The notes beneath the pieces were generated by a model that was not told the DNA's origin, did no database searches, and worked only from the letters and a program-made list of their open reading frames with translations. From contig OZ219787.1 of assembly GCA_964291285.2 (NCBI GenBank), forward strand, positions 1,504,001 to 1,568,000: 64,000 bases of DNA, written 5' to 3'. Position 1 is the first letter of the stretch. Each line of letters begins with the position of its first letter. Source of the stretch: Alphaproteobacteria bacterium (lineage in GTDB: Bacteria > Pseudomonadota > Alphaproteobacteria > Bin95). This document shows positions 3,697 through 43,261 of the stretch, one piece after another. Both the position numbers and the translations under genes were made by a program.

Positions 3697-3720
3697 AGCT
3701 TCCCGTTCTTCCTTCCCCAC

Positions 3721-3752: not shown

Positions 3753-3884
3753 GCAGCCGAACCGGAGGCGGTCCGTCCGGGCGCCGCGCCCGCGCCTGGC
3801 GCGGGCCGCTCGCCTTCCGGCGCCGTCCGGAGGCGGAGGGCGGCCGGTATCGGGCGTCCCGCTCGACCTGGAAGGAAGTCCCGC

Positions 3885-10355: not shown

Positions 10356-10356
10356 G

Positions 10357-17003: not shown

Positions 17004-17081
17004 AGCGTTCCTCCAAGGGGCTGGGCAGACGGGGATTTTGCACCCGAACATTTGCGTACCATCTCACTTCTCAAATTCACC

Positions 17082-18838: not shown

Positions 18839-18930
18839 CAGGCTATCTCAGCTCTCAGCGGGAATTTGCGTTCTTTCATGTGCAATCCGCACACAGTCGC
18901 GAAAGCAGGAGACGGTAGGTGGCTGTTGGT

Positions 18931-20463
18931 TCATGGGGTCCAGCATAGGACTTTCTGGGTGCGGGCCTCTGAGCGTATCCGGCAAAGCGCTTCGCCCACT
19001 TGCAGGCCGGTCAGGGAGACGGTGCTGCCGAAGATGCGCTTCGTCGGACCCGGTCTGGCTTGGGTATTGAAGGCTAGGGTCATGCCCATATTGTCCAAGT
19101 AGCCATCCTCGGCACCATCGAAGTCGTCAGGGGATTGCGATATCAACATGAGGGACCCACCCTTCGATCGACTCATTCGGACGAGATTGCCAAGAGCCGG
19201 AAGCTTTGTCGACAGGATTACATGGGCTTCGTCGAGCATGGTCAGATGGCGGAGCTCGCGCGCACCCTGGTTGTCGGTGGGTGCGTCTGGTTGAGAGTTG
19301 ATCCAACGGTCCAAGGCATCAAGGGTCAAGTTGATGATAAGTCGCCGCATTTCCGGGGATCCGTCTTGTGGAAGCTGGATGATCCAGCTTCTTGCAAAGA
19401 ACGCGGCTGGGGAAAGGTCGGGCTTGAAGAGGGCGAACTGGGTCAGTTCGTTCAACGTCGCCGTCAACTCATCGGCTTTCCGCCCACGATCCTCGTACTC
19501 CGATTCCACTGCCATCGCGACGTCCGGCAGATTTGCTGGGGCATCCGCCGAACTGTGACGAAGGACGGATGCGACTGCTTCCCTCAGCGCTTCTGACTGG
19601 ACGCCGCTGGGCTTGCGTACCTTCACCGCGGCGATCGAGTCCCGAATGCGGGCGGCGGCGGTTTTGATGGATGTGTCATCACTGGACGAAACATGCAGCA
19701 CGTCCAATGGGATTGCCATCTCCGGGGGGATGATTGACGTGGCTCCGAAGCTCTGCGTGAAGCTGTCGATGAGGTCGCCCTTGAAGTCGAATGCCAGGAG
19801 CGGAAGCTCGCAGTGTCGGCGCAATGTGCGCAGCATGTGGACGGCGGTCCTGGTTTTGCCGGAACCGACACCGCCCATGATGGCTATGTGGGGGCTGCCG
19901 CCTGCCCCGTTCACCGAAAACGTGACATGCTCGTTCGACCTGAGATCACGAGCGATTTCGCCCACGGGCAATCGGACTTCTCCAGCGTAGGTGGACGCCG
20001 CGGCATCTGGCGGGGCATCGTCGCGCCGATCACCGTCTCCAGCAAAGCTCGCGAGTTCAGCGAGGCGCGCGACAAAGCCCCCCATCTGCTGGTCGCCGTC
20101 GCTCCAGTCCTGCCTGAGAAGCAACGCACCCCTGTGCCAATGGCGTGTGACCAATTCTTGCAGGACCCTCTTGGTCATTTCAGTGTCGCGGCTGTGCTGC
20201 GTGATGAGAGCCAACCATGCGGCAGCGTGTGCGTCCTCTCCGAAGAGTTGCATGCCGCGCAACGGGATCGCCATGTCCTCGCTGTCTTCATCCTTCAATT
20301 CAGGTGGCTGCTCAGGGAGTGACAGCGATCTACCCACGGCCAGCCGGGCGGCGACATATCGATGCTTCCAACCCAACTTCGCGGTGAGGTCGGCGCAAAT
20401 GTTGTCCGCGGTTCGGGTCGTCCGAAATGTCGATGTCGCAAGATCCAGAATGCCGATAACCAT
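18931..20463 (-). CDS. DndE-like domain fused to a HerA/FtsK (DUF87)-like ATPase
   Basis: N-terminus ARLAVGRSL...RHWHRGALLL resembles DndE; C-terminal PHIAIMGGVGSGKT Walker A, FDFKGD, MLDEAH Walker B, SRSKG, LISQS. Confidence 0.75.
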   Translation of the reverse strand: MVIGILDLATSTFRTTRTADNICADLTAKLGWKHRYVAARLAVGRSLSLPEQPPELKDEDSEDMAIPLRGMQLFGEDAHAAAWLALITQHSRDTEMTKRVLQELVTRHWHRGALLLRQDWSDGDQQMGGFVARLAELASFAGDGDRRDDAPPDAAASTYAGEVRLPVGEIARDLRSNEHVTFSVNGAGGSPHIAIMGGVGSGKTRTAVHMLRTLRRHCELPLLAFDFKGDLIDSFTQSFGATSIIPPEMAIPLDVLHVSSSDDTSIKTAAARIRDSIAAVKVRKPSGVQSEALREAVASVLRHSSADAPANLPDVAMAVESEYEDRGRKADELTATLNELTQFALFKPDLSPAAFFARSWIIQLPQDGSPEMRRLIINLTLDALDRWINSQPDAPTDNQGARELRHLTMLDEAHVILSTKLPALGNLVRMSRSKGGSLMLISQSPDDFDGAEDGYLDNMGMTLAFNTQARPGPTKRIFGSTVSLTGLQVGEALCRIRSEARTQKVLCWTP

Positions 20464-20465
20464 CT

Positions 20466-22541: not shown

Positions 22542-22756
22542 TAATCTTCCGTTTCGGGCTCGATGTTGTCAAAAATCTCGTTAAACGCTTCCGTTATCCC
22601 GCGTTTTCGAAGCTTGCCCTGCTGATCCATCTCTATAGCGATCAACTGTTCGAGCACACCTAGATCAAGGTCTGCTTCCCTGCACTTCGAACGGACGAGC
22701 TTTCTGCCTGCTTCACTACGAAGGAGTACGACATCGCCATGGCCGCTCGGCATCAC
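22541..22756 (-). CDS. small protein associated with Dnd modification
   Basis: 71 aa, coupled to both dndC and dndD; LEQLIAIE...RKRGI resembles the C-terminal segment of canonical DndC. Confidence 0.7.
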   Translation of the reverse strand: MMPSGHGDVVLLRSEAGRKLVRSKCREADLDLGVLEQLIAIEMDQQGKLRKRGITEAFNEIFDNIEPETED

Positions 22757-24000
22757 GCGCCTCCGGTGGCCACGGTGCGCTGCGCTTCCGCATTTCGTTC
22801 TGCACTGACAATCACATCCTCCACCCAGAGCTCCCGTATGCGTTCGATTTCGGATCGGGCAATCAAGACCATTTCCGATTGTGCTTGGAGCGCTAGCAAT
22901 CGATCAAGAATTTCGCGTCTGGTTGCCATGTTGAACGGACCGGGCACGAATACACCCTTCTTGGTGATCGTGACGCGCCCATTGCGGCGCCGGGCAAGAC
23001 GGCGCGAGGGGTCATTGCGAATCTCCACGAGCCAGTCGCGAAACTTGAGCAGCGGCATGAATTGATCGAAACCGGAATCGACGAAGCCCGCCAGGCTCTT
23101 GTCCTTCTCGACGACCGTGCACGTCCAGCACCCGAAACGAGAAGACCTCGTGCCACACGAAGGCACGTCGGCCGTGGAAGTCACGACTGGGCATTCGCCG
23201 CCGCCCGCGTCCCGATAGAGCTGGATCAATCGATCGTGGCTGCCGCCCCAGGGAGGTTTGTTCTCTGCGAGAAATTCCCAAACATCGTCGGTGTCGAGTT
23301 CGAGGATAGGTCGAAACACCAAACAGCCCGGAAGATCGTTGTGCCGGTTCAGTCGCGAACCGTTATCGTAGCGTGCCGCCACGCCCGCCCGCGTGGCGCT
23401 CTCTTTTCTGCGCACGCCAAGGAGAAGGATCACTTCGCCCGAGGTGTTCGCCTGCTTCCGAATGTAGTTGCTGGTCGGCTGGATCTTCATTCGATCGGTG
23501 CACCAGCGGAAGTTGCGGTTGGGTGAGGCATAGCCGCGGCCGATCAGATTGACCCAGAATGTCTGATTCGGTTCGGGCGTGGTCGTGGCAACAACCACGG
23601 GCAAGTCGAATGCCCGTGCTGCCTTCTCGATCTCCGCGAGGCCGATCCTGACATGTTCCATAACCAACGGACTCTCGACGAGCGTGTCGTTCGCGACGAC
23701 ATGGACGGCCCGCGTTCGTTCGCTGCGTGGCAAAGAGACCAAGTGCTCGACAACGAGGTGCGCGACGAGGGTACTGTCCTTGCCGCCGGAGAATCCGACT
23801 ATCCATGGCTTGCCATGAGGCTCAGCGTATTCCTCCTGAATCTGTTGTCGGATGAAGGCAAGGGTGTCGTCGGAGGCGGATTGGGGAGGGTACGTCGGGG
23901 ACCGCGTGTCCATGTTGCTGGACGACGCCGGAGGCTCTGATGCGACGATATGCAACATCCTGTCGAGGCGGTTCTGAGCCGGGAGGGTATCCACACTCAT
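22753..24000 (-). CDS. dndC: DNA phosphorothioation sulfurtransferase DndC (PAPS reductase family)
   Basis: GFSGGKDST, NDTLVE, FRWCTDRMKI, LGVR..ES, GECP, SRFGCWTCTVV. Confidence 0.93.
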   Translation of the reverse strand: MSVDTLPAQNRLDRMLHIVASEPPASSSNMDTRSPTYPPQSASDDTLAFIRQQIQEEYAEPHGKPWIVGFSGGKDSTLVAHLVVEHLVSLPRSERTRAVHVVANDTLVESPLVMEHVRIGLAEIEKAARAFDLPVVVATTTPEPNQTFWVNLIGRGYASPNRNFRWCTDRMKIQPTSNYIRKQANTSGEVILLLGVRRKESATRAGVAARYDNGSRLNRHNDLPGCLVFRPILELDTDDVWEFLAENKPPWGGSHDRLIQLYRDAGGGECPVVTSTADVPSCGTRSSRFGCWTCTVVEKDKSLAGFVDSGFDQFMPLLKFRDWLVEIRNDPSRRLARRRNGRVTITKKGVFVPGPFNMATRREILDRLLALQAQSEMVLIARSEIERIRELWVEDVIVSAERNAEAQRTVATGGA

Positions 24001-26018: not shown

Positions 26019-27638
26019 TCAGCTTGACGGCGTCTGGAAGTTCCAGGGCAGGAGTTCGTCGATGCGGCTGTTGGGATGACCTGCCGCGATCTTTTCGAGC
26101 GTGATCTTGAGCCAGGCGTAGGGCTCGACACCGTTCATCTTCGCCGTCTCGATGAGCGAGCCGATGCGGCCCCAGGAGCGCGCGCCCTCGTCGTGGCCGG
26201 CGAACAACGCATTTTTCGCGGTGAGCTTGATCGGCCGGATCCGATTTTCGACGAAGTTGCTGTCCATCTCGACGCGCCCGTCGTGCAGGAAGACCAGCAG
26301 CCCGTCCCACTGGTTGGCGATGTAGGTCAACTTCTCGCCGAGGCGGGACTTGGGCGAGACGCGCGAGCGCTGCTCGTCGAGCCACACCCCGAAGGCGTTC
26401 ACCAGCGGCGCGGACCCGGTCCAGCGGACGAACTGGCGCGTCGCCGGCTCCTCACCCCGGATCCTGTCCTCGATCCTGTAGAGCTGCGCGATGCGCTCCA
26501 GTCCGGCCTTCGCGATCGGCGAGCGGCTGCTGTCGAACACCGTCTCAAGGCCGCGCCTGGCGTGTGCCCAACAGGCACAGAGCGTCAGCGCCCCGCCCGG
26601 GCGATCCGCCCGGCCGAGCCGGTTGTGGCCGGCATAGCCGTCGACCTGCACCGATCCCTGGAAGCCCTCGAGGAGCTTCTCGCCATGCTTGCCGCTGCGC
26701 CCGGGCGCATACTCATACGCCACCCCCGGCGGGTCCGCCCCGGACCAGGCCCGCTGGTCGCGCACCATGGTCCACAGATAGCCGGTTTTGGTCTTGCCCC
26801 GGCCCGGGTCGAGAACCCGAACCGTGGTTTCGTCCAGACCCAGGGTGCTCGACGTCTTCAGCGCCGTCTTCAGGCGCTCATACACGGGGCGCAAGTGGAA
26901 CGCCGCCTTGCCGACCCAGCCGGCCAGCGTCGAGCGGTCCAGTTGCAGCCCCGAGCGGGCATAGATCCGGGCCTGGCGGTACAGCGGAAGGTGGTCGGCA
27001 TATTTGGAGATCAGGACATGGGCGATGGCGCCTTCGGTCGGCAGCCCACCCTCGATCAGCCGCGCCGGCGCCGGCGCCTGGGTAACGCCTTCCTCGCACT
27101 TGCGGCAGGCGTATTTCGGGCGCACCGTGACGATCACCCGCAACTGCGCCGGCACGATGTCGAGCCTCTCGGCGCGGTCCTCGCCGATCTTCACCATCTC
27201 CCCGCAGCCGCAGGGGCACAGCGTGCTCTCCGGCTCGATCACCTGCTCGATCCGTTCCAGGTGCTCCGGCAAATGGCCGAGATTGCGCTCCGGGCGGGGC
27301 TTCCTCGGTGCGCGCGGCGGCGACGGATTGTCGGCCGCGGCCTGTGCTTCCCCCTCCGCAGACGCGCCCTCCAGCTCCTCGAACGCCAGCTGGCGCTCGT
27401 CCGCCGACAGCTTCTCCGACCTCTTGCCATACACAAGGCGGACCAGTTCGAGGTTCAGATGCTCCAGACGGCGGATGCGCGCCGACAGCGCCTCATTCTC
27501 ACCCGCGAGGCAGACCTTCTCTTCCGTCAGCGTCCTGTTCTCGGTGCGAAGCGTCTCCAGCGCCGCAAGCGCCTGCCTCGCAGCAGACGCCTGTTCGGGC
27601 GTCAGCGTGTCGAGGTCCATCTCCGCAAGCGCTGCCAT
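26019..27638 (-). CDS. tnpC: IS66 transposase TnpC
   Basis: GKRSEK, CPCGC, KYADHLPLYRQ, DET, DGYAG, CWAHARR, ELLPWN. Confidence 0.95.
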   Translation of the reverse strand: MAALAEMDLDTLTPEQASAARQALAALETLRTENRTLTEEKVCLAGENEALSARIRRLEHLNLELVRLVYGKRSEKLSADERQLAFEELEGASAEGEAQAAADNPSPPRAPRKPRPERNLGHLPEHLERIEQVIEPESTLCPCGCGEMVKIGEDRAERLDIVPAQLRVIVTVRPKYACRKCEEGVTQAPAPARLIEGGLPTEGAIAHVLISKYADHLPLYRQARIYARSGLQLDRSTLAGWVGKAAFHLRPVYERLKTALKTSSTLGLDETTVRVLDPGRGKTKTGYLWTMVRDQRAWSGADPPGVAYEYAPGRSGKHGEKLLEGFQGSVQVDGYAGHNRLGRADRPGGALTLCACWAHARRGLETVFDSSRSPIAKAGLERIAQLYRIEDRIRGEEPATRQFVRWTGSAPLVNAFGVWLDEQRSRVSPKSRLGEKLTYIANQWDGLLVFLHDGRVEMDSNFVENRIRPIKLTAKNALFAGHDEGARSWGRIGSLIETAKMNGVEPYAWLKITLEKIAAGHPNSRIDELLPWNFQTPSS

Positions 27639-27689
27639 GGCCCGCTCGATAGCACAGTGTCGGGGAGCCGGGGGCCCCGATCCGCTGAG

Positions 27690-28043
27690 TCATTCCGCCT
27701 CAGCCGGGGCCCGGACGGACAGCGCCCGAACACGACGCCAGTCCAGCCCGCAGAACAGCGCCTCGAACTGTGCATGGTTCAGCGTCATGACACCGTCGCG
27801 GATCGCAGGCCACACGAAGCCCTGATCCTCCAGACGCTTGTAGACCATCACCAACCCGGTCCCGTCATGGAAGACGAGCTTCAGCCTGTCGCTTCGTTTT
27901 GCCCTGAAGAGGAAGACCGTTCCCGTGAACGGGTCCTTGCGCAACACGCTCTTCACATGCGCAACAAGGCCGTCGTGCTGCTTCCTGAAGTCCACGGGCT
28001 TCGTCGCAACGACGATCCGCACACGGTTCGATGGGAAGATCAT
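27690..28043 (-). CDS. tnpB: IS66 accessory protein TnpB
   Basis: VDFRK..DGL, YKRLE..GFVWP. Confidence 0.93.
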   Translation of the reverse strand: MIFPSNRVRIVVATKPVDFRKQHDGLVAHVKSVLRKDPFTGTVFLFRAKRSDRLKLVFHDGTGLVMVYKRLEDQGFVWPAIRDGVMTLNHAQFEALFCGLDWRRVRALSVRAPAEAE

Positions 28044-28438
28044 GACGCCGCGTTCAGCGCAGAAACGATCTCCGCCAACCGTCCCGCCGGCACGGCCGCG
28101 TCCAGACGGACCGTAACCCTGTCCATAACGACTTCCAGACGCGCGCCGCTCGCCTCACCGACACCGCTACCCTCCGCCCGGACAACCAGCGGCGCAAACG
28201 CCACTTCCGCCGCAGGCAAAACAAGCCGACCTTCCCGCGCCAGGCGACGCCAGCCCGTCAACTGGTTCGCATGGACGCCATGTCTGCGCGCAACCTCGCG
28301 AACCGTCGCACCCGGCTCCAGCGTCTCCGCCACAATCCGCGCCTTCAAATCATCCGGCCAGCGACGACAACCGCCTCCAACCGGAAGCACTTCTACGCTC
28401 CTGAGTGTCTCAACTGAGCCCAACATTGTGAAACTCAC
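28040..28438 (-). CDS. tnpA: IS66 TnpA (HTH)
   Basis: RRWPDDLKARIVAET..VARRHG..ANQL..WR. Confidence 0.9.
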   Translation of the reverse strand: MSFTMLGSVETLRSVEVLPVGGGCRRWPDDLKARIVAETLEPGATVREVARRHGVHANQLTGWRRLAREGRLVLPAAEVAFAPLVVRAEGSGVGEASGARLEVVMDRVTVRLDAAVPAGRLAEIVSALNAAS

Positions 28439-29097
28439 CTCCTGCTCAAATCACAGAAGGGGAATCCCAAATCACGCCTTCAACTGGAAGGTGGCTCAGC
28501 CGCCCCGCTTACCATTCAAACAGGTGAACCGTGAGGACATTGGGGCACTGCCAATCACGGTTCCGTCCCTCCACGAGCAACGACGGATTGCGGAATTCCT
28601 GGACAAGGCGGACGCGCTACGGGTCAAACGCCAGGCCGCGCTCGTCCAACTCGACACGCTCACGCAGTCCATCTTCATCGACATGTTCGGAGACCCTGCC
28701 AGCAATACAAAGAGGTGGCCTGTCGCGTTGCTGAGAGAAGCCACCGCGCGGATTCAGATCGGCCCCTTTGGATCGCTCTTGCACCAACAGGACTACGTGA
28801 AGGGAGGGATCCCCCTTGTAAACCCCAAACACATTCAACAACGGGCAATCCAGCCTGACCCTTCGGAGACGCTCAGCGCTCGGAAATTTGCTGAACTCGA
28901 CACCTATCATTTGCGGGCCGGTGACGTGGTAATGGGACGCCGAGGTGAAATGGGGCGCTGCGCAATTGTCAACGAGGGCAGCGGCCCGCTGTTGTGTGGT
29001 ACAGGATCGCTGTTCGTTCGACCGGACAATGAACACACCACAAGCCTCTTTCTGCTTTTTCTTCTTTCGAGTGTGGCACTAAGCTCGACTTTGTGCA

Positions 29098-30480
29098 TTA
29101 TGCTGCGAAGCAGAGGGCGTACTGCATCCGCCTTATCTTGTCGGGCGGAATTATGTTTGGTTCCCGGTGTGGCGGGGAGCGCGATAAATTGTTTCCAAGC
29201 CAGAGTTGGCATCGTATGGCCGCGATTGCATCGGAGAATGTGACGCTGGTTTTCTGGTACCAGGCGGCGGCGTAGGACAGGTGGTTTGTCGAGAGCACGT
29301 CTGTGGCCCAGAGGCAGACGAGGCTGTAGAGCCCGCAGAGGACGGGGGTGGTTCGTGCGATCGCCGCGTGTGACCACTGGCGTTGTGTTTCGAGCCCGAG
29401 ATGGGCGCGCAGTTCCTGGAAGGTGACCTCGACCTGCCAGCGCCGCACGAAGGTGGCGATGATCTTGGCCGGCTCCATGTTGGTGTCGGTGCAGAAGAAC
29501 GCCTGCGGGTCCCGCTCGCCTTCCGGGTCTCGCACCAGCACCCATCGGATGGCCTTGGGAGGTGTGCCGGGACGATACCAGAGCGCGGTATCGGAGATGA
29601 TCTGGAGTGTCTTTTCCTTCGAACTTCCGTACCAGCGCGGAAGCGTGATGCTTGTCCAGCGGGCATCGGGGTCGTCAAGGCGGGTCTGGAGCTTGGGCAG
29701 GGGCGGCCCCTTTTGCCGGGGTCGACCGCGTTTGTTCGGGTCGCGCGGCGGCGGGGGCGCGAAGAGGTTGGCATCGAGCCTCAGCCTGCTGATGAGGGTT
29801 GCGCGCTGTCCGATGCGCCAGGCGAGTTCGTGGGTTCCGAAACTGCTGTCGGCGACGAAGACGATCGCGCGTTGCGGGACCCAGCGAAGGATTTGAAGCA
29901 TGCCCTGTCGCGCCCAGTCGGTGAGTTGCTTGTGACGCCGGCCTTGCCTGGCGGCGAAGCGTTCGGACGGGGCCAGGATGGTCAGGAAGGGCAGGGCCCT
30001 GATGCCCGGCGACCAGGGCAGCGGGACAAGCAGCATGAAGCTGAGCCAGCGCAGCCCGCTGGTCTTGACGAAATGGCCATGGCTGGAACGCACCGGGTCG
30101 CGATAGATGCCGCGCGCCTTGATACGCGCGCCCCAGCGGCGCTCGATGGTGTCATCGAGCCCGATGATGATCGGTCCCTGCCCGGCAAGCCGCGCCACCA
30201 GCACGAGCACGAGCCGGCGTGAAAGGTCACGCGGGTCCCAGCGGGCGCGATTGAGAACCTGATGGTAGGACGAGAATGTCTCGCACATCGCCCGCCCGGT
30301 CACCCGCAGGCAGGCCGACACGGTTCTCTTGCCCGGCGCCAGCAACGCTCCCATGACCAGAACCGCCACCAGCCGCCAGGTCGGGGATGAGAAGGCGCCT
30401 CGAAAGGGCTCCAGCCAGTCGATCAGGAACGGCGGAACCGGATCGCCGATGGCGCTCGAAGGGTCGTCGAAATGTGTCAT
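29098..30480 (-). CDS. IS701-family transposase
   Basis: LDDTIERRWG, GIYRDPVRSS, VADSSF, RRWQVEVTFQE. Confidence 0.9.
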   Translation of the reverse strand: MTHFDDPSSAIGDPVPPFLIDWLEPFRGAFSSPTWRLVAVLVMGALLAPGKRTVSACLRVTGRAMCETFSSYHQVLNRARWDPRDLSRRLVLVLVARLAGQGPIIIGLDDTIERRWGARIKARGIYRDPVRSSHGHFVKTSGLRWLSFMLLVPLPWSPGIRALPFLTILAPSERFAARQGRRHKQLTDWARQGMLQILRWVPQRAIVFVADSSFGTHELAWRIGQRATLISRLRLDANLFAPPPPRDPNKRGRPRQKGPPLPKLQTRLDDPDARWTSITLPRWYGSSKEKTLQIISDTALWYRPGTPPKAIRWVLVRDPEGERDPQAFFCTDTNMEPAKIIATFVRRWQVEVTFQELRAHLGLETQRQWSHAAIARTTPVLCGLYSLVCLWATDVLSTNHLSYAAAWYQKTSVTFSDAIAAIRCQLWLGNNLSRSPPHREPNIIPPDKIRRMQYALCFAA

Positions 30481-30589
30481 GACGACCTTCGAATCCAGAA
30501 GCATCCGGCATGCAAGGGCGCCCGCATGCGACCGGGTGAATCAGCATCGCTGCAGCGACAGAAGCCATCCAATCCGATATCACTGCTTC

Positions 30590-30877: not shown

Positions 30878-31128
30878 GGTAATTTTGTACAAAGTCGAGC
30901 TAAGAGCACGGTTAGAGCGCTTGTCGCTGGGACAGACCCTCCCAAATGTCAACTCTCAGATTGTCGAAAGCCTCGAAGTTCCCTTGCCACCCCTTGCTTT
31001 GCAACTTGAGTTCGCCGAACGAGTCGAGGGTGTGCACCGGCTCGCCAATGCGCAAACACAAGCCGCCAATCAACTGAGCTCGTTGTTCGCGTCCCTTCAA
31101 CAGCGTGCCTTCCGAGGAGAGCTGTAGC

Positions 31129-34900: not shown

Positions 34901-35392
34901 GGCCTCGCCCCCGGCACGGACTACGCGAAGTTCTTGGCCAAGGTACGTGCATTTCTTCGCGACCACATGGACCATGTCGCCATTGCAAAACTGAGATTGA
35001 ACAGACCGCTCACGGCGACCGACCTCTCAGAGCTGGAGCGGATGCTCATCGAGAGTGGCCTCGGCGGGGCGAGCGAGCTTCAACGTGCGGCAGAGGAGTC
35101 CCAGGGACTCGGATTGTTCGTGCGGTCGTTGGTAGGCATGGATCGCAGTGCTGCTAAGGAGGCCATGAAGACGTTCCTTGTGGGTAAGTCACTCTCGGCC
35201 AACCAGATCGAGTTCGTGAACCTCATCGTCGATCACCTTACGGAGCACGGCATTGTCGCTCCTGATCGTCTCTACGAATCCCCGTTCACCGACATCACGC
35301 CTCACGGACCGGATGGCTTGTTTCGGCCTGAGGAATTGGATGAATTGATGCAGGTGCTCAAGACTCTGCGAGACGCAGCCATTGCGGCATGA
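31979..35392 (+). CDS. hsdR: Type I restriction enzyme R subunit (EcoKI/EcoAI-like, DUF4145 N-terminus)
   Basis: VDY...VEAKR nuclease, MATGAGKT, DEAHRS, GLTATP, TGID, QMVGRGTR, LYESPF. Confidence 0.95.
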   Translation: MSQFAFLQREWPAVFDAASRAEAAVHADPRTACFYARRALELAVNWAYKHDAALRLPYRDNLSALIHEPSFKQAAGDAVFSKARVINTLGNRAVHGYRAVPEADALAALRELFHVTYWFARTYARAARPAPGLTFDPAALPRPAVTSRKTAEQLRALEGGLRERDEKLTTLLADKGALDEELKRLRSEVAEAKKEAAAQPDTHDYSEAETRDYFIDLLLKEAGWPLNQDRDREFEVSGMPNATGQGFVDYVLWGDDGKPLGLVEAKRTRRDARVGQRQAELYADCLECQFGQRPIIFYSNGYEHWIWDDIRYPPRSVQGFYKKEELELLIQRRETRRSLAEATINSEIVERHYQTRAIRRIGEAFERDHDRKALLVMATGAGKTRTVIALSDLLMRCNWAKRVLFLADRVALVNQAVNAFKRHLPDASPVNLVTERNVEGRVYVSTYPTMMGLIDEARDGERRFGVGHFDLVIIDEAHRSVFQKYRAIFDYFDSLLVGLTATPKDEVDRNTYSLFELENGVPTDAYSLEEAVRDGYLVPPKAVSVPLKFQREGITYNELSEDEKDQWDALEWDDDGTVPDRVAAEAVNKWLFNRDTVDKVLEHLMTRGLAVAGGDQLAKTILFAKNQEHAEFIAERFNANYPHYKGAFGRVITFKTEYAQSLIDNFSNKEKDPHLAISVDMLDTGIDIPEVVNLVFFKLVRSKTKFWQMVGRGTRLCPDLFGPDQDKELFYIFDYCQNLEYFSQDIPATDGSVIEPLGKRLFNARLELIATLDHHAWEGESDELKEPASSYGDPETNAAVRRSLADLLHREVVAMNVNNFVVRPQRRLVEKYAKPEVWVSLPAEALTELSNELAGLPSELDPEKEEAKRFDLLVLNLQLSLLRHEPGFARLCDRVKQIAALLEEKAAIPMVQAQMALIQDIQADEWWQDVTVPMLEVMRRRLRSLVQFIDKQQRRPVYTDFEDLMGGETAVDLPGLAPGTDYAKFLAKVRAFLRDHMDHVAIAKLRLNRPLTATDLSELERMLIESGLGGASELQRAAEESQGLGLFVRSLVGMDRSAAKEAMKTFLVGKSLSANQIEFVNLIVDHLTEHGIVAPDRLYESPFTDITPHGPDGLFRPEELDELMQVLKTLRDAAIAA

Positions 35393-36342
35393 CCGCGATG
35401 CCGACGCCGGACGTAGGCCTTCGCGGGGACAGGGGTGTTCATATGGAGACGGCCTGGCGGAGCGCCCTGGGCAAGGATTGCCGGGGCAGCCGCCCGCGAT
35501 GCATCCGGCTTGTGGATGGGACGAGAGGCGAGGTTGCAGCCCGACTGACTGGCCTTGTCGGTCTTCCGGAAGTGGTGGTCACGGAAAGAGACTTCTGGAT
35601 GCCCTACGGGAAACCGGTGTGGGCGAACGGGCAGTGGGATAAGAAACCTGCGGCAGAGACCCGGCTTGACCGTGACGCCGGCTTCCTCGCCCCGGAATTG
35701 CGGCGACGGCTCCAACGCTGGTGGCTGGAGGTTCCGAAGGGAGCGAATACTCCGAACTGGGATCTGGCCGCCACTTGCCGGATCGAAGGAAGAAAAGGCC
35801 TGCTCCTCGTGGAAGCTAAGGCTCACACGAACGAGCTGTCGGATGCCGGCAAGTCGACGTCGGCCAAGGAGAACGGGCGGCGGAACCACAAGCGGATCGG
35901 TTCAGCGATCGAGGAGGCTCGAAGTGGTCTCGGACGCCTGCCGGGCGGATCATGGGGCCTCTCCCGGGACGCTTGCTATCAGCTGTCCAACCGGTTCGCA
36001 TGGTCCTGGGAGCTGGCCATGCTCGGAGTGCCTGTCGTTCTGGTCTATCTCGGCTTCCTGAACGCCGAAGACATGGCGAGGGATGGCACGCCGTTCCGGT
36101 CGGGGGATGATTGGGCCACCGCCATGAAGAAGCACGCACGAGGGATCGTGCCCGAAACCTGCTGGGGACGGCGGCTGGTCCTGAACGGTACGCCCTTCAT
36201 ACCATTAATCCGAGCATTGCATGTACCGTTGACGCCGAACGTGCAGCAGCCGCCCTCCTCGTGGAAACACTCCGCCGTCGAGGACGACGACGTCAGATTG
36301 CGTCCCCCGGCGACCATGGCACCCTCTTGCGATCGTTCCTAG
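35389..36342 (+). CDS. PD-(D/E)XK restriction-endonuclease-like protein
   Basis: PNWDL...LLVEAKAH..E and YQL motifs; ATGA overlap with hsdR. Confidence 0.6.
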   Translation: MTAMPTPDVGLRGDRGVHMETAWRSALGKDCRGSRPRCIRLVDGTRGEVAARLTGLVGLPEVVVTERDFWMPYGKPVWANGQWDKKPAAETRLDRDAGFLAPELRRRLQRWWLEVPKGANTPNWDLAATCRIEGRKGLLLVEAKAHTNELSDAGKSTSAKENGRRNHKRIGSAIEEARSGLGRLPGGSWGLSRDACYQLSNRFAWSWELAMLGVPVVLVYLGFLNAEDMARDGTPFRSGDDWATAMKKHARGIVPETCWGRRLVLNGTPFIPLIRALHVPLTPNVQQPPSSWKHSAVEDDDVRLRPPATMAPSCDRS

Positions 36343-36412
36343 ACTCGACTAATTTGCCAACCGGTGCTACTCAAAAGCGTCCATGAGCCCAGCGATGAGG
36401 AACGATAATATC

Positions 36413-36616
36413 ATGGATCACATCCTATTGGCACGTGCAACGCGCAAGCCATATGCTGAATCTCCCGAGATTGAAGCCGGCGTCCGCTACGACAGCGAAA
36501 AAGGGTACTGGCTGTCAGGCGCGGAGCCTCTAGTTTCAACTGACAACTTCCTTGCGACTGACCCCACCACAAAGAAATGTGATGTGGAAACCGGCGAAGA
36601 CCAGAAAGGCGAATGA
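36413..36616 (+). CDS. graspetide (ATP-grasp RiPP) precursor peptide
   Basis: GAGGAA RBS; C-terminal Thr/Lys plus Asp/Glu core TTKKCDVETGEDQKGE; ATGA-coupled to the ligase (alternative start 36383). Confidence 0.8.
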   Translation: MDHILLARATRKPYAESPEIEAGVRYDSEKGYWLSGAEPLVSTDNFLATDPTTKKCDVETGEDQKGE

Positions 36617-37554
36617 CACCTCGCGTCCTTATCCTATCTGGCCTCTATGATTTTTCGACCGACTTAGTCGTACTCGAGCTGGAAAGGGCGCGTGTTCCAT
36701 ATCTAAGGGTCAACCGCGAACATCTCTCTGAGCACCTGTTTGCCCTTGATCCCATTGCAGAAGAGCTCCGGGTTACAGGCCCGTCCGGTCGATCTATAGT
36801 TGGCCCTGACTTGGCTTCGGTATGGTTCCGACAGCCGGTTTTTTTGCGAAATACTCCATCTACACCACTATCTCCGTATGAGCAACTTGAGCGTTCCCAA
36901 TGGACAGCATTCATGAGGGCTCTCTGCGTTTTCCAGAATGCTCATTGGGTGAATCATCCTGCTGCTACCTATATCGCAGAGTCTAAACCATATCAGCTGT
37001 CAGTGGCTTCCCGATGCGGCTTTCAGGTTCCTAAGACATTTGCTACCAATGACGTCTCTATAGTTCACACCGAATTCCCAGATCAGCTAATAGTAAAATC
37101 CTTGGATACCGTTTTGCTAAGGGATGGCGACGATTGTCTATTTACATATACCACTGTTGCGGATGGATCTACTCTATCCGCTGCTGAGGTAAAGCCTGTT
37201 CCAATGCTTGCACAGAGATACCTGAAGGACAAAAGCGACTTGCGAGTCACTGTTATCGGTGATACAATCTTCGCAGTACGAATTTTGTCTGATGGCGATG
37301 GGATCGTTGGGGATTGGCGAACCCTACCAAAGGAACAACTACAGTATGTTGATATGGAGCTCGACGAAAACACAAAAAAATCATGTTTTGCCCTTACCAG
37401 TGTTCTCAATCTGTCATTTGCGGCGATTGACTTAGTGGATACGCCGCATGGTATCTTTTTCGTTGAGATAAATCCGACAGGTGAATGGGGATGGTTATCA
37501 AAAAAAGATAGGCGCATAGATGTAGCAATAGCGTCTGCATTAGCTTGCCCATAA
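36613..37554 (+). CDS. MvdC/MvdD-like ATP-grasp peptide ligase
   Basis: ESKPYQL, VPKT, IVKSL, DLRVTVIG, DWR, AIDL, FVEINPTGEWGWL. Confidence 0.9.
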   Translation: MTPRVLILSGLYDFSTDLVVLELERARVPYLRVNREHLSEHLFALDPIAEELRVTGPSGRSIVGPDLASVWFRQPVFLRNTPSTPLSPYEQLERSQWTAFMRALCVFQNAHWVNHPAATYIAESKPYQLSVASRCGFQVPKTFATNDVSIVHTEFPDQLIVKSLDTVLLRDGDDCLFTYTTVADGSTLSAAEVKPVPMLAQRYLKDKSDLRVTVIGDTIFAVRILSDGDGIVGDWRTLPKEQLQYVDMELDENTKKSCFALTSVLNLSFAAIDLVDTPHGIFFVEINPTGEWGWLSKKDRRIDVAIASALACP

Positions 37555-37563
37555 TGCGGTAAC

Positions 37564-38238
37564 ATGGGACATCCATTTGCAGCTCGATGCGTTGAAGAAT
37601 TGGTTCCGTTTCTTCAGTATTTCCGCGCCAAAAAGAAGTTGCTTGAAAAATGTTCACAGCAGGACATATTGTTATCGGAAGAATTTACGGAGTACAAAAC
37701 ACTTGACGAGGAGACTCTTGCGGAAAGAATAAAAGATGAGCGTATTCGCGCAATTGCGCTTGACGAAAAGACATTCAAATTCACTATGGCTTTTACTATA
37801 ACTTTTGCAGTGTTTGCACTTGCAGTGTCTTTAGTTGTCCGTGGAAACCACCCAGAGTATGTCATTGTAGCGGCAGCGCCAGGAGTACTTTACCTCTTCG
37901 GAGCGGGGTTTCTAGCCCTTGGAGCAATGAGGACATTGCCATCGTATGGATACGGTACACATTTCAAGCTTCTTGTCAGAGAGCGCAAGGTTGCAGCGTT
38001 GGCGGAGGCGTTGGCTCGTCAGGAAACCATGAATCTGGTGCGACACGTGAGAAACGAAACGTCGCTTATGGCGGCACGAAATGGCTTCGTATGGATTGGC
38101 GCCTGTTTAGTCGTGTTGGTAATCGCGGCAGTCCTAGAAGTATCGGGGTTGAACGAAATGCTGCAAGGACCGTCGGGGCCGAGCCGGTGTTGGACTAGCA
38201 ATAACTGGGTCGGCGACGAGGCCGGGAGCATGACATGA
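37564..38238 (+). CDS. 3-TM membrane protein
   Basis: Three hydrophobic stretches (FTMAF..LVV; YVIV..LGAM; GFVW..AVL); 9 nt after the ligase stop. Confidence 0.75.
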   Translation: MGHPFAARCVEELVPFLQYFRAKKKLLEKCSQQDILLSEEFTEYKTLDEETLAERIKDERIRAIALDEKTFKFTMAFTITFAVFALAVSLVVRGNHPEYVIVAAAPGVLYLFGAGFLALGAMRTLPSYGYGTHFKLLVRERKVAALAEALARQETMNLVRHVRNETSLMAARNGFVWIGACLVVLVIAAVLEVSGLNEMLQGPSGPSRCWTSNNWVGDEAGSMT

Positions 38239-38309
38239 CGGAGAACCGGAGTAAGGGGAACGAAGACAGCCTTTGGCACAAGGTTGATAAAGCTGAGGCG
38301 GTCGCGTTT

Positions 38310-39761
38310 GGTCGTGTCCCCAGGGGTGGTGTAGGAGCTGAAGCTTCCGGTGGTAGCTGTGGGTAAGTGGCCCGCCGCCGCGACCGTCTGGAGTCAGGCG
38401 GCGGCGGGCCACTTACCCACAGCGGAGGCCATCGCGGTGCCGGTTAGGGTTGGGCTGTCACAGTCCACCTGACCGGAGGAGTACCACGATGACCACCACC
38501 GACATGATGACCCTGCGGGCGCTGTTGGAGAAGAGTTCCGACGCCGACCTGCTTCGCGAGATGATCGGGTTCACGGCCGCGCGTCTGATGGCGCTTGAGG
38601 TTGAGGGCCTTGCGGGCGCCGCGCACGGCGAGCGCTCGCCGGACCGGATCACGCAGCGCAACGGCTACCGGGACCGGGTCTGGGAGACGCGGGCCGGCAC
38701 GGTCGAACTGAAGATCCCGAAGCTGCGCAAGGGGAGCTACTTCCCGGGCTTCCTTGAACCGCGGCGGATGGCGGAGAAGGCGCTGACGGCGGTGATCCAG
38801 GAGGCCTACATCAAGGGCGTATCGACCCGCTCGGTGGACGACCTGGTGCAGGCGATGGGCATGTCGGGCATCTCCAAGAGCCAGGTGTCGCGGCTGTGCG
38901 GCGAGATCGACGACAAGATCCGCGACTTCCTCGACCGGCCGCTGGAGGGCGACTGGCCGTATCTCTGGCTTGACGCGACCTATGTGAAGATGCGCGAGGC
39001 CGGGCGCGTCGTCTCGGTCGCGGTCACCATCGCGGTGGCGGTCAACGATCAGGGCCGGCGCGAGGTGCTCGGCATGGCGATCGGCGCGTCCGAGGCCGAG
39101 ACCTTCTGGACCGACTTCCTGCGCTCGCTCGCCCGCCGCGGCCTGCGCGGCGTCAAGCTGGTGATCTCCGACGACCACAAGGGCCTGAAGGCCGCCGCCA
39201 CCCGCATCTTCGGCGCCACCTGGCAGAGATGCCGCGTCCACTTCATGCGCAACCTGCTCGCCCATGCCGGCAAGCAGGGCCGGCGCGTCGTCTCCGCCTT
39301 CGTCACTACCGCCTTCGCCCAGGAGGATGCAGACAGCGCCTCCGCCCAGTGGCGCCAGGTCGCCGACCAGCTCAGGCCCAAGGCGCCAAAGCTCGCCGCC
39401 ATCATGGACGAGGCCGAGCACGATGTTCTCGCCTACATGACCTTCCCGGCCGCGCACCGCGCCAAGCTGCACTCGACAAACCCGCTCGAACGCCTCCACG
39501 GCGAGATCAAGCGGCGCACAAACACCGTCGGCATCTTCCCCAACGAGGACGCCATCACCCGGCTGATCGGCGCAATCCTGCTCGAGCAGAACGATGAATG
39601 GGCAGTCCAGAGAGCCAGATACATGACACTGGAATCCATCGCTCCCGTGAGCGACAATACAACCGTCAAGTTGCCCGCCGTGGCAGCCTGAGCGTTCCGG
39701 CCCTACCCGCCGGACACCGCTACGGACGCCAGGCTCTTACACCACCCGCGGGGGCACGATC
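38310..39761 (+). mobile_element. IS256-family element
   Basis: IRs GGTCGTGTCCCCAGGGGTGGTGTA / rc GATCGTGCCCCCGCGGGTGGTGTA; 8-bp TSD TCGCGTTT at 38302-38309 and 39762-39769. Confidence 0.95.
38489..39691 (+). CDS. IS256 transposase
   Basis: [41 protein letters not shown]. Confidence 0.96.
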
Positions 39762-40727
39762 TCGCGTTTCGACGAAGGATGGGTAGAGTGGGGAATAGGT
39801 TGAGGTCGCACTTGGTTCGTCTTGCGAAGGTGCAGGAGGAGGCGGGTGGCGGCGTGGCAGGACACCTGAGTGGCGGTGCAACGCTTATAAGGTCAGGAGA
39901 CCGAAGGGGTCTGCTGACGGCGGCACATAACGTAGTGTGCAAATTTCCAAGAAAAACGACGTCGTTTATTGGTCAATCTATGGAGGTATTGGTAGGAACA
40001 TTTCGGCCAAATCAGATGGCCGTGGTTACAGTGGACTTATCAGGTGCGGTAATAGAGGGGGGAATATATGAACGAGGGGATGAAAGGGAGATCGGGCCAG
40101 ACATAGCTTGGATTCCATTGGATGACGACTCGGCAAATAGAATTGAAAAATATGGACGAGTCTTCTTTAACTTGCACGAGGGTAGATTTCCGGGGATTGT
40201 GGACAAGGATAGTACAGCCGTCGAAACAAATGGTGGCATGTATGTTGGATATTTAGTTACCGGGTTTAGCGGAGTGCGGGAAGAAATTGTTCGACATGAG
40301 CATGGGCCAGGTATTTTGGAGCTTGCTCAGGATGTATATCCATATGAGGATCGGTGGAGGGCTGGAGGGTGGGATTATGAAATTAGAGTTATTGAGGACG
40401 GTAGCGAGGTCGATGATGAGAATTTCATTTTAGATTTGAGTCTTCCGCAAGCTGTCCGAAGTAGGATCCCGACTCGGGTGGAGAGATTGGGTGGTCTAAG
40501 CGGTGGTGGGTTATGGATATTTGGGGAAGACAAGGATTTGAGACAATATGTGGATCTGGTCGGAGTGGTATGGTACCAGAGCGGCAGTCATGAGCACGAC
40601 ACTTCGCTTCGTATTGTGAACCATGGAAGGGCGAGTATAGATCGCATCATCGGCGGCAAGAGGACAGGGTGATAGGGGAACTGGTTCATACGGGAGCGGT
40701 TATGGCTAATCGGCCGCCCTCACCCAT

Positions 40728-41903
40728 TTAGTTGCTGTGCAAACCACCCGCCATCGCCGCGGCGATGGTCGTTCCGACGCGCTCCGCTGCGCTCTCGACT
40801 TCGCGGTCTCCGACGTGGGCATACCGCAGCGTCATGGTCGGCTGCGTATGACCAAGCATTCTGGCGACGGTCGGCAGGGGAACGCCCCGGGCCACGGCCT
40901 GGCTCGCTACGGTATGGCGCAAATCGTGCAGGCGCACATCCTCGATCTCGGCTTCTCGCCGCGCGCGTTGCCAAAGCCCGAGATTACGCGACTGCGGCCT
41001 CGCCGGGTCCCTGGGCGAGGGAAAGACGAAGGCGCTTCCCGTTCGCGGCTGGCGGGCGATGATGGCCTGCGCCGCCTCGCTCAGCCAGACCGTGCGCGGC
41101 CCGGTTTTGGCCTCGGCCAATCTGAGCATGTCGCTATCGACCTCCGACCATCTGAGCGTCAGGATTTCACTCTTCCGGCAGCCGGTCAGCAAAAGCAGGC
41201 GGACGACGTCGGCCTGCGGCAGGCGCGAGGGCCGTTTCTCCACCAGCCGGTCCAGGGTCCGGTGAAGCCGGGCTATCTCTTCCGCGGACAGGAAGCGGGT
41301 CATCTTCCGGCCCGGGTTCGGCCTGACACCTGCAAGCGGATCGGTCCCGACATGGCCGGCGATTTTCGCGGCACTGACGATCTGGCGCAACACGACAAGC
41401 GCGATGTTGGCCGTGCCCGGCGTCTTGCGGCTCATGTTGTCGAACCAGCGTTCAACATGAGGCCTGCCGATGCGGTCGAGGCGAAGCGCCCCGAAGGCGG
41501 GCAGAAGCCGGGTCCGGATCATGCGGTCCACACGCTCGCCCCAGCCTTGGCTGTAATGGCCCCGGCGTGCCGGCAGCCAGTCCTCCATGACGAAATCCCG
41601 GAAAAGGGGGACGGCAGCCCGGCCGGCAGGGTCTCCGGAGCAAAGCGGATGCGAGCCGTCCAGCAGGGACCGGCATGTGATCCGGGCTTCTGCCACCGTG
41701 GTCAGCGCGGCCGCGCCGATGGTCGTCCGCACCGGCCTGCCGTTCACGGTCCCATGCCAGACGAAACTGCGATGCCCGGAAGGACGGACCCGCACGCCCA
41801 GCCCGGCAACGCGAATGTCCCTGACGATGTATTCGGTACTGCCGGGACGCAGTTTCCTGACAGCGGCGTCCGTCAGGCGGACCTTCTTCGCCTTGCCCGT
41901 CAT
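40728..41903 (-). CDS. tyrosine recombinase/integrase (second of tandem pair B)
   Basis: Arm-binding N-terminus (GLGVRVRPSG); TGCR, KTG, HDLRH, LGH, RYAH. Confidence 0.93.
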   Translation of the reverse strand: MTGKAKKVRLTDAAVRKLRPGSTEYIVRDIRVAGLGVRVRPSGHRSFVWHGTVNGRPVRTTIGAAALTTVAEARITCRSLLDGSHPLCSGDPAGRAAVPLFRDFVMEDWLPARRGHYSQGWGERVDRMIRTRLLPAFGALRLDRIGRPHVERWFDNMSRKTPGTANIALVVLRQIVSAAKIAGHVGTDPLAGVRPNPGRKMTRFLSAEEIARLHRTLDRLVEKRPSRLPQADVVRLLLLTGCRKSEILTLRWSEVDSDMLRLAEAKTGPRTVWLSEAAQAIIARQPRTGSAFVFPSPRDPARPQSRNLGLWQRARREAEIEDVRLHDLRHTVASQAVARGVPLPTVARMLGHTQPTMTLRYAHVGDREVESAAERVGTTIAAAMAGGLHSN

Positions 41904-43027
41904 GACTGCGCGCCCGAGAGCAACGGCGCCAGCGCCTCGACCGTCTCCCGGACCGTGGCGTCCGAGAGATGCGCGTATTTCAGCGTCGTCGCCGCGTTGT
42001 CATGGCCCAGCAGCCGCCCCACCGTGCGGATCGTCTCGCCGCTCGACAGCGCCATGCTGGCGTAGCTGTGCCGCGTGTCATGAAGGCGCATGTCGTCAAG
42101 GCCTGCCTCGGCGCGCAGCTGTATCCAGAAGGCGTCCAGCCAGCCCCATGGCGTGCTCCAGCCTCCAATAGGGAACACGAAGCGCGACGAACGCGGCAGG
42201 CCATCGAGGACCTCCCGCGCCGCTTCGCACAACCAGACCGTGCGGGGACCGGTCTTCGAATCGGCCAGATAGAGCCTGCCGTCGCGGTAGAAGCGCCATT
42301 CGAGGGTGACGATCTCCGACTTCCGGCAGCCGGTCAGCAGCAGCAGGCGCAAGGCCGCAACCCGGAACGGTTGCCGGGCCTCATGCCGGTCCAGCGCCAT
42401 GCCAAGGCGGCGGTATTCCTCCGGCGACAGGAATCGCTCCGACCGCTTCTGCCGGTAACGCCGGATGCCCTTGCAGGGATTGCCGCCGTCGGGCCGATAC
42501 CCCCACGCCTCGGCCTGCTGCATGATGACGGAAAGAATAGGCGCCGAACGGTTGGCTGCCGCTGGTGTCGCATGGAGGGAGCGGAACCAGCGCTGCACCT
42601 CCTCCCGGTCGATCTCGGCGACAGGCCGGCCCGCGAAGAAGGGCAGGATCTGGTTTTGCAGATAGCGGCGGTTGACGGCGAGCGTGCGCGGCTTCCAGCG
42701 CCTGCCGTAGCGGGTGAAGACCTCCTCGGCGACGGTCTCGAACAGCGCGTCTCCGGATACCTCCGCTTCGACATCCCTGTCGTCCCGGAGCGCGGCCAGC
42801 ATGGTCCGGGCGCGGGCACGCGCCTCGGCCTCGGTCATGACCGCCGCATCGCCGACGATCTTCCAGACCCGGTGGCCCCGGTGCTGGCTGTGGATGAAGT
42901 AGCGTTTCGTGCCCGAAGGCATGATGCGGACGCCGTATCCCTTCAGTTCGGCGTCCCTGACATTGCGGACGGTCTTGCGGGGCCGGAGGGTATCGACCCG
43001 GCGCTGGGTGAGGCGGATGGCTGCCAC
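41900..43027 (-). CDS. tyrosine recombinase/integrase (first of tandem pair B)
   Basis: GYGVRIMPSG arm domain; TGCR, KTG, HDTRH, LGH, KYAH; GTG start inferred; ATGA overlap with partner. Confidence 0.92.
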   Translation of the reverse strand: MAAIRLTQRRVDTLRPRKTVRNVRDAELKGYGVRIMPSGTKRYFIHSQHRGHRVWKIVGDAAVMTEAEARARARTMLAALRDDRDVEAEVSGDALFETVAEEVFTRYGRRWKPRTLAVNRRYLQNQILPFFAGRPVAEIDREEVQRWFRSLHATPAAANRSAPILSVIMQQAEAWGYRPDGGNPCKGIRRYRQKRSERFLSPEEYRRLGMALDRHEARQPFRVAALRLLLLTGCRKSEIVTLEWRFYRDGRLYLADSKTGPRTVWLCEAAREVLDGLPRSSRFVFPIGGWSTPWGWLDAFWIQLRAEAGLDDMRLHDTRHSYASMALSSGETIRTVGRLLGHDNAATTLKYAHLSDATVRETVEALAPLLSGAQS

Positions 43028-43261
43028 GATTGCGGTTCCCCGATCAGTTGCACGGTGTGCAAAGCCGGATTCGCTCCAACGCCCCGGTTGCACCGGAAAC
43101 GGGAAAATTCCACAATCATGTCAGATGGTTAGCACCGCAGGTGCGGCGAGATGTGTGTGTGCGTTAGGCTCGGGGACGGGGACAGGCGGGGTCCGGGGGG
43201 ATGATTGAGATTGCGAACGAGTCTGCTTCAGCCCGAACGGAATGCGCCCTTGTCCATCCCC

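Follow-up and report, generated by a model that had tools for sequence, protein, structure and literature searches.

To our knowledge, the biological roles of graspetides, a class of peptides made on the ribosome and modified after translation (RiPPs), are mostly unknown beyond protease inhibition, although their structures are known. Group 7 of this class, the marinomonasin type, reportedly takes its number from Lee et al. 2020, and marinomonasin itself is said to have been described by Kaweewan, Nakagawa and Kodani in 2021. Marinomonasin and a second group 7 peptide, Gra-3 from Bacillus, were each dehydrated three times in Escherichia coli, and the report, in its relevant part, places the three dehydrations within the C-terminal fragment of both (Ayikpoe et al. 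2022, PMC9576775). We found no reported activity of group 7 graspetides in the literature searched. Here, we analyze a cassette of this type in a 64,000-nucleotide stretch of an alphaproteobacterial genome (GenBank assembly GCA_964291285.2, contig OZ219787.1, positions 1,504,001 to 1,568,000, forward strand), which we call the window. The cassette encodes a graspetide precursor, an ATP-grasp ligase and a membrane protein with three transmembrane (TM) helices, followed by a serine protease gene that is cut by an insertion sequence (IS).

To define the conserved part of this cassette, we scanned one genome per species and recovered 51 related loci from Alpha-, Gamma- and Deltaproteobacteria, Acidobacteria, Chloroflexota, Rhodothermales, Bacteroidales, Bacillales, Clostridia, Saccharibacteria and other taxa. 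A precursor homolog lies directly upstream of the ligase in all 51, and its stop overlaps the ligase start by 4 nt in 40 of the 51. The TM protein follows directly downstream in 47 loci (45 of the 51 by tblastn, and the clostridial loci L046 and L048 by blastp clustering); the other four either run out of sequence or are interrupted by an ISL3 element ahead of the position of the TM gene. All-against-all clustering of 620 crude open reading frame (ORF) calls found only the ligase, the TM protein and the precursor to be widely common. Since no other family is shared by more than 4 loci, we take the conserved unit to be these three genes, and because 51 other loci show them in the same order, their arrangement in the window is not a chance one. 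By tblastn, the protease, a 317-aa ORF upstream of the cassette and hsdR are each present in none of the 51. Two plasmid records likewise hold the same triad, annotated as hypothetical, RimK-like and hypothetical, with no protease annotated. A first-pass annotation of the window, made from the letters alone, had named both the TM protein and the protease as partners to be expected in relatives: the former is found downstream in every one of the 47 loci with sequence there, and the latter is absent by tblastn from all 51 and unannotated in the two plasmid loci. Neither ORF clustering nor flank scans revealed an ABC exporter or a leader peptidase in the conserved unit, and the remark in that annotation that no ABC exporter is present thus extends to the family.

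Copies of the triad are found on plasmids (L030, L052 and L053), on conjugative elements (L002 and L047) and in a prophage (L028). Judged by this distribution, the three-gene operon is horizontally mobile and moves between phyla. Damaged copies also occur. In one locus, a 474-aa ORF without family assignment has inserted into the TM gene and split it (L007:6966-9372), the ligase of another is cut by an ISL3 transposase (L050:3367-5388), and both precursor and ligase are decayed in Morganella psychrotolerans (L049:5806-7449).

In the window, the plus-strand ORFs of the cassette are co-oriented, with the ligase and TM genes flanked by called ORFs at 36383..36616 (77 aa), 38235..38366 and 39779..40672 (297 aa). 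ATGA overlaps join the genes at 36613/36616 and 38235/38238, and a 9-nt gap (37555-37563) separates the ligase from the TM gene. The four cassette genes have a GC content of 0.47-0.53, whereas the window as a whole has 0.659, and hsdR, the integrases and the 317-aa ORF have 0.61-0.68. Four same-strand, tightly spaced genes that are richer in AT than their host had been described from the letters, and the ORF list and base composition agree.

The precursor is best read as a 67-aa protein that starts at ATG 36413, which is preceded by GAGGA. The longer 77-aa frame from 36383 had been proposed originally, but the 46 homologs examined are 62-70 aa long and begin with M-x-x-H-(I/V/L)-L, and these lengths favor the later start. 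The conserved leader reads HILL..RKPY..P.....YD...GYW..PLV, and translation confirms the C-terminal core given earlier for the window, TTKKCDVETGEDQKGE. This core fits the consensus (T/S)KKxDxETGEDxKGE, of which (T/S)KKxDxETGEDxK is kept in the precursors of 48 of the 51 relatives, and 1 of its 16 residues is different in the precursor of Marinomonas fungiae (L021). Thr/Ser/Lys donors and Asp/Glu acceptors are thus available in the core of a precursor that adjoins its ligase. Conservation extends over the whole length of the small protein, which ends in Glu in 45 of the 51 loci.

The ligase matches RiPP maturase models in NCBIfam (GRASP_SAV_5884 at 2.8e-52, MvdC at 2.3e-35 and MvdD at 3.5e-25), all of them under their curated cutoffs, and its sole Pfam match is RimK (5e-6). 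A profile built from 20 ligase homologs matches solved graspetide synthetases in the PDB over their full length (AMdnB 7m4s at 2e-34, CdnC 7mgv, 9bou and 5ig8) and others in part (5ig9 and PsnB 7drm), and the enzyme is homologous to ATP-grasp macrocyclases of the MdnB/MdnC/PsnB type. Together with the donors and acceptors of the core, these matches bear out the earlier call of a graspetide precursor-ligase pair. A database search returned 1233 ligase homologs at E ≤ 1e-3; the best 120 of them are 57-93% identical to the window protein, about 318 aa long and “RimK-like” where named. A phage collection gave two distant ligase matches (29-33% identity), which probably belong to other graspetide groups.

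Published labels allow a more precise placement than the “graspetide-like” pair of no stated type that was first described. The supplement of Carter et al. 2026 (PMC13097080), in the part consulted, labels precursors ending in ETGEDQKGE as graspetide group 7; the string occurs there 301 times, and the M. fungiae precursor, identical to that of L021, is included in the set. In the supplement of Makarova et al. 2022 (PMC8939145), again in part, the same family appears as cluster171, “2020_Lee gr_07.” The window ligase is 47-65% identical in pairwise comparison to ligases of species that the group 7 data sets name, or to those from records of the same species (for example, M. fungiae, Vibrio sagamiensis and Martelella). 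The ligase scores under the NCBIfam cutoffs, and group membership rests on the precursor motif and the published labels. By sequence, then, the precursor and ligase are a member of published graspetide group 7, marinomonasin type, and no new RiPP class.

The third core gene encodes a membrane protein that is specific to this family. Three hydrophobic segments were found by hydropathy in 26 of 33 homologs, and an AlphaFold2 model built with 33 homologs is all-helical and confident (pLDDT 88.4, pTM 0.78). Lys and Arg number 11-21 before the first TM helix (in 32 of 33 homologs), whereas the first loop, which is short, has 0-3 and the second, of about 55 residues, 5-11, a distribution which predicts that the N terminus and the second loop are cytoplasmic. 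All of the conserved motifs (EEIFPF, RLKEEHxRAxxIDEKTxK, LPxYGYGT and QExxNxxRxxRNExAYQCLRNG) would accordingly be predicted to lie on the cytoplasmic side. The aligned homologs share no catalytic-looking set of residues. By sequence comparison, the TM protein has no relative in Pfam, NCBIfam, PADLOC or the PDB, and a Pfam scan of the 33 homologs at E ≤ 1 gave only scattered matches at chance level. A Foldseek comparison of the model with the PDB returned nothing at E ≤ 0.001, the phage collection holds no match, and no fused, longer form turned up when one was sought, a weak piece of evidence. The ESM Atlas returned unnamed clusters and a weak lead to a cluster where PycTM is found on 11% of the members (score 0.90, rank 12). 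Makarova et al. 2022, in part, list an “uncharacterized membrane protein (cluster 40)” whose role is unclear; a search of their supplement for a tie between it and the present TM family yielded nothing but unrelated strings.

Two further features of the TM family were observed. The loop motif LPxYGYGT follows the second helix (37933-37956, residues about 124-131), and its two glycines are kept in at least 90% of the 33 homologs; GYG is the signature of the K+ channel filter, and the resemblance is superficial. The clostridial TM proteins (L046:1472-2335 and L048:3627-4508) carry an extra C-terminal tail of 85-98 residues after the third helix and are 14-15% identical to the window protein, and their precursors keep the core TKKxDIETGEDKKGE.

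The fourth gene of the window is a single 325-codon frame that an IS256-family element has cut; the two halves of the gene are still in frame and contain no other stop. The 8-bp target duplication, TCGCGTTT, is exact and lies at 38302-38309 and 39762-39769, and the element has imperfect terminal inverted repeats and a single copy in the window. Its transposase matches Pfam Transposase_mut (1.6e-121) and NCBIfam transpos_IS256 (1.5e-103). An intact relative of 326 aa, P0122, shares 82% identity overall, and its residues 1-25 agree with the 25-codon head at 17 of 25 positions. The insertion has thus knocked out the protease gene and left the three core genes intact. An inverted repeat inside the left end of the IS (38356-38423; perfect over 26 nt, loop of 16 nt) lies just before the start of the transposase gene and could fold into a strong hairpin, which perhaps regulates transposase expression. 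The fourth gene has a GC content of 0.50-0.53, like the core genes, in contrast to 0.677 for the IS; this low value and the overlap of its start with the TM stop make it probable that the gene came in with the cassette, as an addition specific to this lineage.

The product is a putative trypsin-like serine protease, as judged from its His, Asp and Ser motifs (TAAHN, PDIAWIP and GGLSGG) and from transitive homology, and it is probably cytoplasmic, since no signal peptide is evident. Its family is rare, with 28 relatives among 5.8 billion proteins, none of them named. Across 15 protease sequences, the Asp and Ser are invariant and the His nearly so, and the window protein and its 14 close relatives have no Pfam match even at E ≤ 1. 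A profile search of 1.84 billion representatives returned 287 relatives, of which 147 were newly listed; 131 of these (16 short ones were dropped) and the window protein made a set of 132. Every member of this set has T50, H53 and D111, and at least 90% have S244; the remote relatives match Trypsin_2 (34), Trypsin (5) and Peptidase_S32 (1) in Pfam. An ESM Atlas lead agrees with the trypsin-like link. The AlphaFold2 model is too poor to show two barrels (pLDDT 44.6), and the PDB yielded nothing usable by sequence and, with this poor model, nothing by Foldseek at E ≤ 0.001; a plasmid collection held no match. The protein thus resembles PA-clan Trypsin_2 enzymes in having conserved His, Asp and Ser motifs in the canonical order, but differs from them in the missing direct Pfam match, the apparently cytoplasmic location and the rarity of its family. 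A role as leader peptidase for the whole family was weighed too and rejected, as the protease is absent by tblastn from 51 of the 51 other loci; in the lineage of the window, it may still serve as one.

Table 1. Features of the window and defense-related genes near the triad in related loci (restriction or named defense genes within 3.5 kb).
Locus	Feature	Position	Strand	Remark
Window	Graspetide precursor, 67 aa	36413..36616	+	ORF; homologs upstream of the ligase in 51/51 loci
Window	ATP-grasp macrocyclase (graspetide synthetase), 313 aa	36613..37554	+	Start overlaps precursor stop (ATGA)
Window	Family-specific membrane protein, 224 aa	37564..38238	+	Third core gene; three predicted TM helices (about 74-92, 100-118, 175-193)
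Window	Protease gene, 5' part, 25 codons	38235..38309	+	Start overlaps TM stop (ATGA)
Window	IS256-family element, 1452 bp	38310..39761	+	Transposase 38450..39691; GC 0.677, host-like
Window	Protease gene, 3' part, 300 codons	39770..40672	+	In frame with the 5' part
Window	Two tandem tyrosine integrase genes	40728..43093	-	4-nt overlap; close the island after the cassette
Window	DndB-like	17082..18359	-	Part of the low-GC (0.47-0.63) Dnd/Pbe-like phosphorothioation cluster, 17082-24000
Window	DndE plus HerA/DndH-like ATPase	18931..20463	-	Dnd/Pbe-like cluster
Window	DndD/PbeC	20466..22541	-	PADLOC 1e-207
Window	DndC	22753..24000	-	PADLOC 2e-121
L001	C5 methylase			Within 3.5 kb
L003	Three Uma2 genes and HmaB (3e-105)	7593-10592 (HmaB)		HmaB abutting the cassette, same strand
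L004	Methylase-Mrr fusion
L005	Type ISP enzyme			Next gene, same strand
L007	Methylase
L010	HEC-01A/B and HicB	2953-4772 (HEC-01A/B)
L013	HmaC (E=0)	1850-5221		Just upstream
L014	BrxL (8e-289)
L020	PD-T7-4 (6e-78)			Next gene, same strand
L027	ThsB-like TIR and DUF4145
L029	mad8-like
L030	Two ThsB-like TIR genes and SLOG			Plasmid
L034	BamHI restriction-modification
L046	IetA (4e-95)			Next gene, same strand

To assess the surroundings of the triad, we compared 292 flanking ORFs of at least 100 aa (within 3.5 kb, 49 loci; our own crude gene calls) with Pfam and ran PADLOC on 94 of them, namely, those of at least 150 aa without a Pfam match plus 13 with one. Restriction or named defense genes occur in 14 of the 49 loci (Table 1), a count without a matched control and hence a tendency, not a tested enrichment. 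Four more loci have toxin-antitoxin (TA) toxins only (PIN in L009, MqsR in L040, SymE with contact-dependent inhibition toxins in L041 and MazF in L045), bringing the total to 18 of 49. Another 12 have only genes of mobile elements (integrase, transposase, resolvase, conjugation or phage), examples being a type IV secretion coupling protein, a mer transposon with IS110, a prophage lysozyme with terminase, and ArdC with TraG. The plasmid copy of the triad in Martelella adjoins AbiEii/AbiEi. The expectation that relatives would keep their membrane and protease partners near defense genes is borne out in part: the TM partner is strictly conserved and defense or mobile genes accompany 30 of the 49 loci, but the protease partner is not conserved. 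The precursor, ligase, TM protein and protease themselves have no PADLOC match at E ≤ 0.01. Hma genes abut the cassette in two loci (HmaB in L003 and HmaC in L013), and HEC-01A/B lie near it in a third (L010). HEC names denote candidates found embedded in Hma loci, and the triad may itself be an Hma-embedded passenger.

The window copy has hsdR on one side and two integrases on the other, and its island further holds Dnd/Pbe and type I restriction genes; PADLOC and Pfam matches around the cassette support the defense-island setting first assigned to it. Directly upstream of the segment with the cassette, hsdR is confirmed (PADLOC REase_I, 2e-171). The label of a PD-(D/E)XK gene for the 317-aa ORF (35389..36342) is not: this ORF has no family match in Pfam, NCBIfam or PADLOC at E ≤ 0.01, and only an ExK-like motif was seen by eye. 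Between the Dnd cluster and the cassette lie transposases, IS-split hsdS pieces, a PDC-S32-like ORF and hsdR. Matches to hsdS cover the last part of ORF 26076..29243 (residues 814-1003) and a remnant of 80 aa (30885..31127), with a DDE_5 transposase on the opposite strand between them (29098..30504; region 26076-31127). The type I specificity gene thus appears to be broken by an IS, while hsdR looks intact, and the type I restriction-modification system of the window may for this reason be nonfunctional. A 290-aa ORF (31105-31977) between the hsdS remnant and hsdR has a weak PADLOC match to PDC-S32 (1.2e-8) and no Pfam family, and two small unassigned ORFs (16254..17051 and 18350..18838) lie in the region of the Dnd/Pbe-like cluster. 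A tRNA scan found no tRNA gene in the window.

The reading we favor, tentatively and at slightly less than even confidence, is that the core is a mobile three-gene group 7 operon whose TM protein is the partner for release of the cyclized peptide or for protection of its producer. The ribosome would make the 67-aa precursor, whose conserved N-terminal two-thirds would serve as the leader bound by the ligase. With ATP, the ligase would then join Thr/Ser/Lys to Asp/Glu side chains in the core TKKxDxETGEDxKGE, and the expected product, extrapolated from the two relatives modified in E. coli, would be a tricyclic knot formed with three losses of water. The 3-TM protein, which is seen only with this ligase family, would receive the cyclized peptide at the membrane, most likely for its release or for producer protection. 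As the unit travels on plasmids, integrative elements, a prophage and defense islands, its use probably lies in conflict with phages or competitors and not in housekeeping. In the lineage of the window, a fourth, translationally coupled protease gene would have come along and later been lost to the IS256-family insertion.

Several observations weigh against this reading. Pfam, PDB sequence and Foldseek-PDB comparisons relate the TM protein to no known pore, transporter or immunity protein, and an energy source for export, such as an ATPase, is missing from the conserved unit. GNAT genes were found in only 2 loci (L020 and L025) and an SMR gene in 1 (L043) in the flank scans. A secreted weapon would not usually keep its core peptide nearly invariant across phyla, as seen here, and an internal partner accounts for this at least as well. 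No defense or mobile marker lies within 3.5 kb in 19 of the 49 loci, and the neighborhood counts come without a background control. The ligase also falls under the cutoffs of all NCBIfam maturase models (178 bits against a cutoff of 350).

An internal partner is the premise of the strongest alternative, which we consider possible but doubtful: the triad would be a peptide-based anti-phage system of the abortive-infection kind, in which an intracellular cyclized peptide controls a membrane-damaging 3-TM effector. The peptide might hold the effector shut until infection removes it, or the product of the ligase might switch the effector on; variable fourth genes, such as the protease here, would be add-ons that modulate it with neighbors in the defense island. 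The company of restriction or named defense genes in 14 of 49 loci, several of them abutting on the same strand (L003, L005, L020 and L046, and HmaC on the upstream side in L013), is consistent with this, as is the position of the window cassette between a type I restriction-modification system and integrases, beside the Dnd/Pbe cluster. So are the lack of an exporter or leader peptidase in the conserved unit, the predicted cytoplasmic location of the conserved face of the TM protein, the near-invariant core, and core genes that are IS-cut or decayed in L007, L049 and L050, as with costly accessory genes. The weak PycTM lead points the same way. Pycsar PycTM and the TM effectors of CBASS offer a parallel of function only: they too are small multi-TM proteins beside an enzyme with a small product, in defense islands, but the signal in the window would be a ribosomal peptide, and no relation of sequence or fold to its TM protein was found. 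Against an anti-phage role, none of the three proteins matches a PADLOC model and no sensor domain is evident. The modification of two relatives in E. coli in the absence of phage (PMC9576775) suggests that the ligase is not obviously gated by infection. The 19 loci without defense or mobile neighbors and the uncontrolled counts tell against this role as well, and our literature searches returned no paper that links the group 7 family to defense.

The same mobile surroundings would suit an addiction module, in which the TM protein would be a toxin and the ligase-matured peptide a labile antidote, with no phage involved. The triad occurs on plasmids (L030, L052 and L053), conjugative elements (L002 and L047) and a prophage (L028), with integrases or resolvases adjacent; its operon is compact and translationally coupled, and TA toxins are its neighbors in L009, L040, L041 and L045. 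Still, a system of three genes with a maturation step that consumes ATP is an elaborate way to provide an antidote, and the neighborhood evidence fits the other readings equally well. We regard this explanation as improbable.

Very unlikely is the model with which the locus was first described, in which four genes act together and the cyclized peptide inhibits or triggers the linked serine protease in a microviridin-style abortive infection. The protease start does overlap the TM stop, its GC content is as low as that of the cassette, the enzyme appears cytoplasmic and trypsin-like by sequence, and a preprint, in the part consulted, states that all functionally characterized graspetides are protease inhibitors. 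However, the protease is found by tblastn in 0 of the 51 loci and is not annotated in the two plasmid loci, its family has 28 members against at least 1233 ligase homologs, and the gene is IS-disrupted in the window beside three intact core genes. Being absent from all 51 other loci, the protease cannot be at the center of a model for the family, and such a scheme could apply only as a local elaboration. Hardly credible is a non-RiPP activity in which the enzyme extends or tags the C-terminal carboxylate of the small protein in the manner of RimK or a Pup ligase: sources do name it a “RimK-like protein,” Pfam gives only RimK, and the small protein is conserved throughout and ends in Glu in 45 of 51 loci, but side-chain macrocyclases make up all of the best-matching models and solved relatives, and the published work on two members, in part, describes three dehydrations in a C-terminal fragment (PMC9576775).

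The precursor-ligase pair is already catalogued, with a characterized member, and the copy in the window is a further, new member that has an unusual and broken fourth gene. Neither our literature searches nor term searches of PMC8939145 and PMC13097080 found the strict three-gene unit with the TM protein or its placement in defense islands and mobile elements. A single membrane protein, outside all described families, always accompanies the group 7 pair. The unit moves between phyla and often lands among restriction, BREX, Hma, Thoeris-like, PD-T7-4 and IetAS genes, and the use of the peptide becomes a simple bench question. It is conceivable, if rather unlikely, that the group 7 triad is an unrecognized, widespread peptide-based immune or abortive-infection module, with the knotted peptide as the switch or plug of a membrane effector. 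If the defense reading is true, a ribosomal cyclic peptide joins the kinds of molecule used in bacterial immunity; if it is false, the TM protein is still a candidate for a new RiPP export or immunity component.

Among described systems, the marinomonasin cluster of M. fungiae is the nearest to the window cassette. The two share 15 of 16 core residues (L021), ligases with 50% identity and the same gene order, including the 3-TM gene (L021:6939-7664). They differ in their surroundings, as the M. fungiae locus has ordinary-looking neighbors (SUKH_5, ABM and MAPEG), whereas the window copy has an extra, IS-split protease gene and lies in a defense island. The comparison with microviridin is more distant. 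MdnA with MdnB/MdnC (MvdC/MvdD) likewise relies on leader-recognizing ATP-grasp ligases that form side-chain esters or amides in a C-terminal core, but the window cassette has one ligase instead of two, a different core motif, and a conserved unit without an ABC transporter or GNAT. In keeping with this distance, the window ligase scores 122 against a cutoff of 425 for the NCBIfam MvdC model and 89 against a cutoff of 475 for MvdD.

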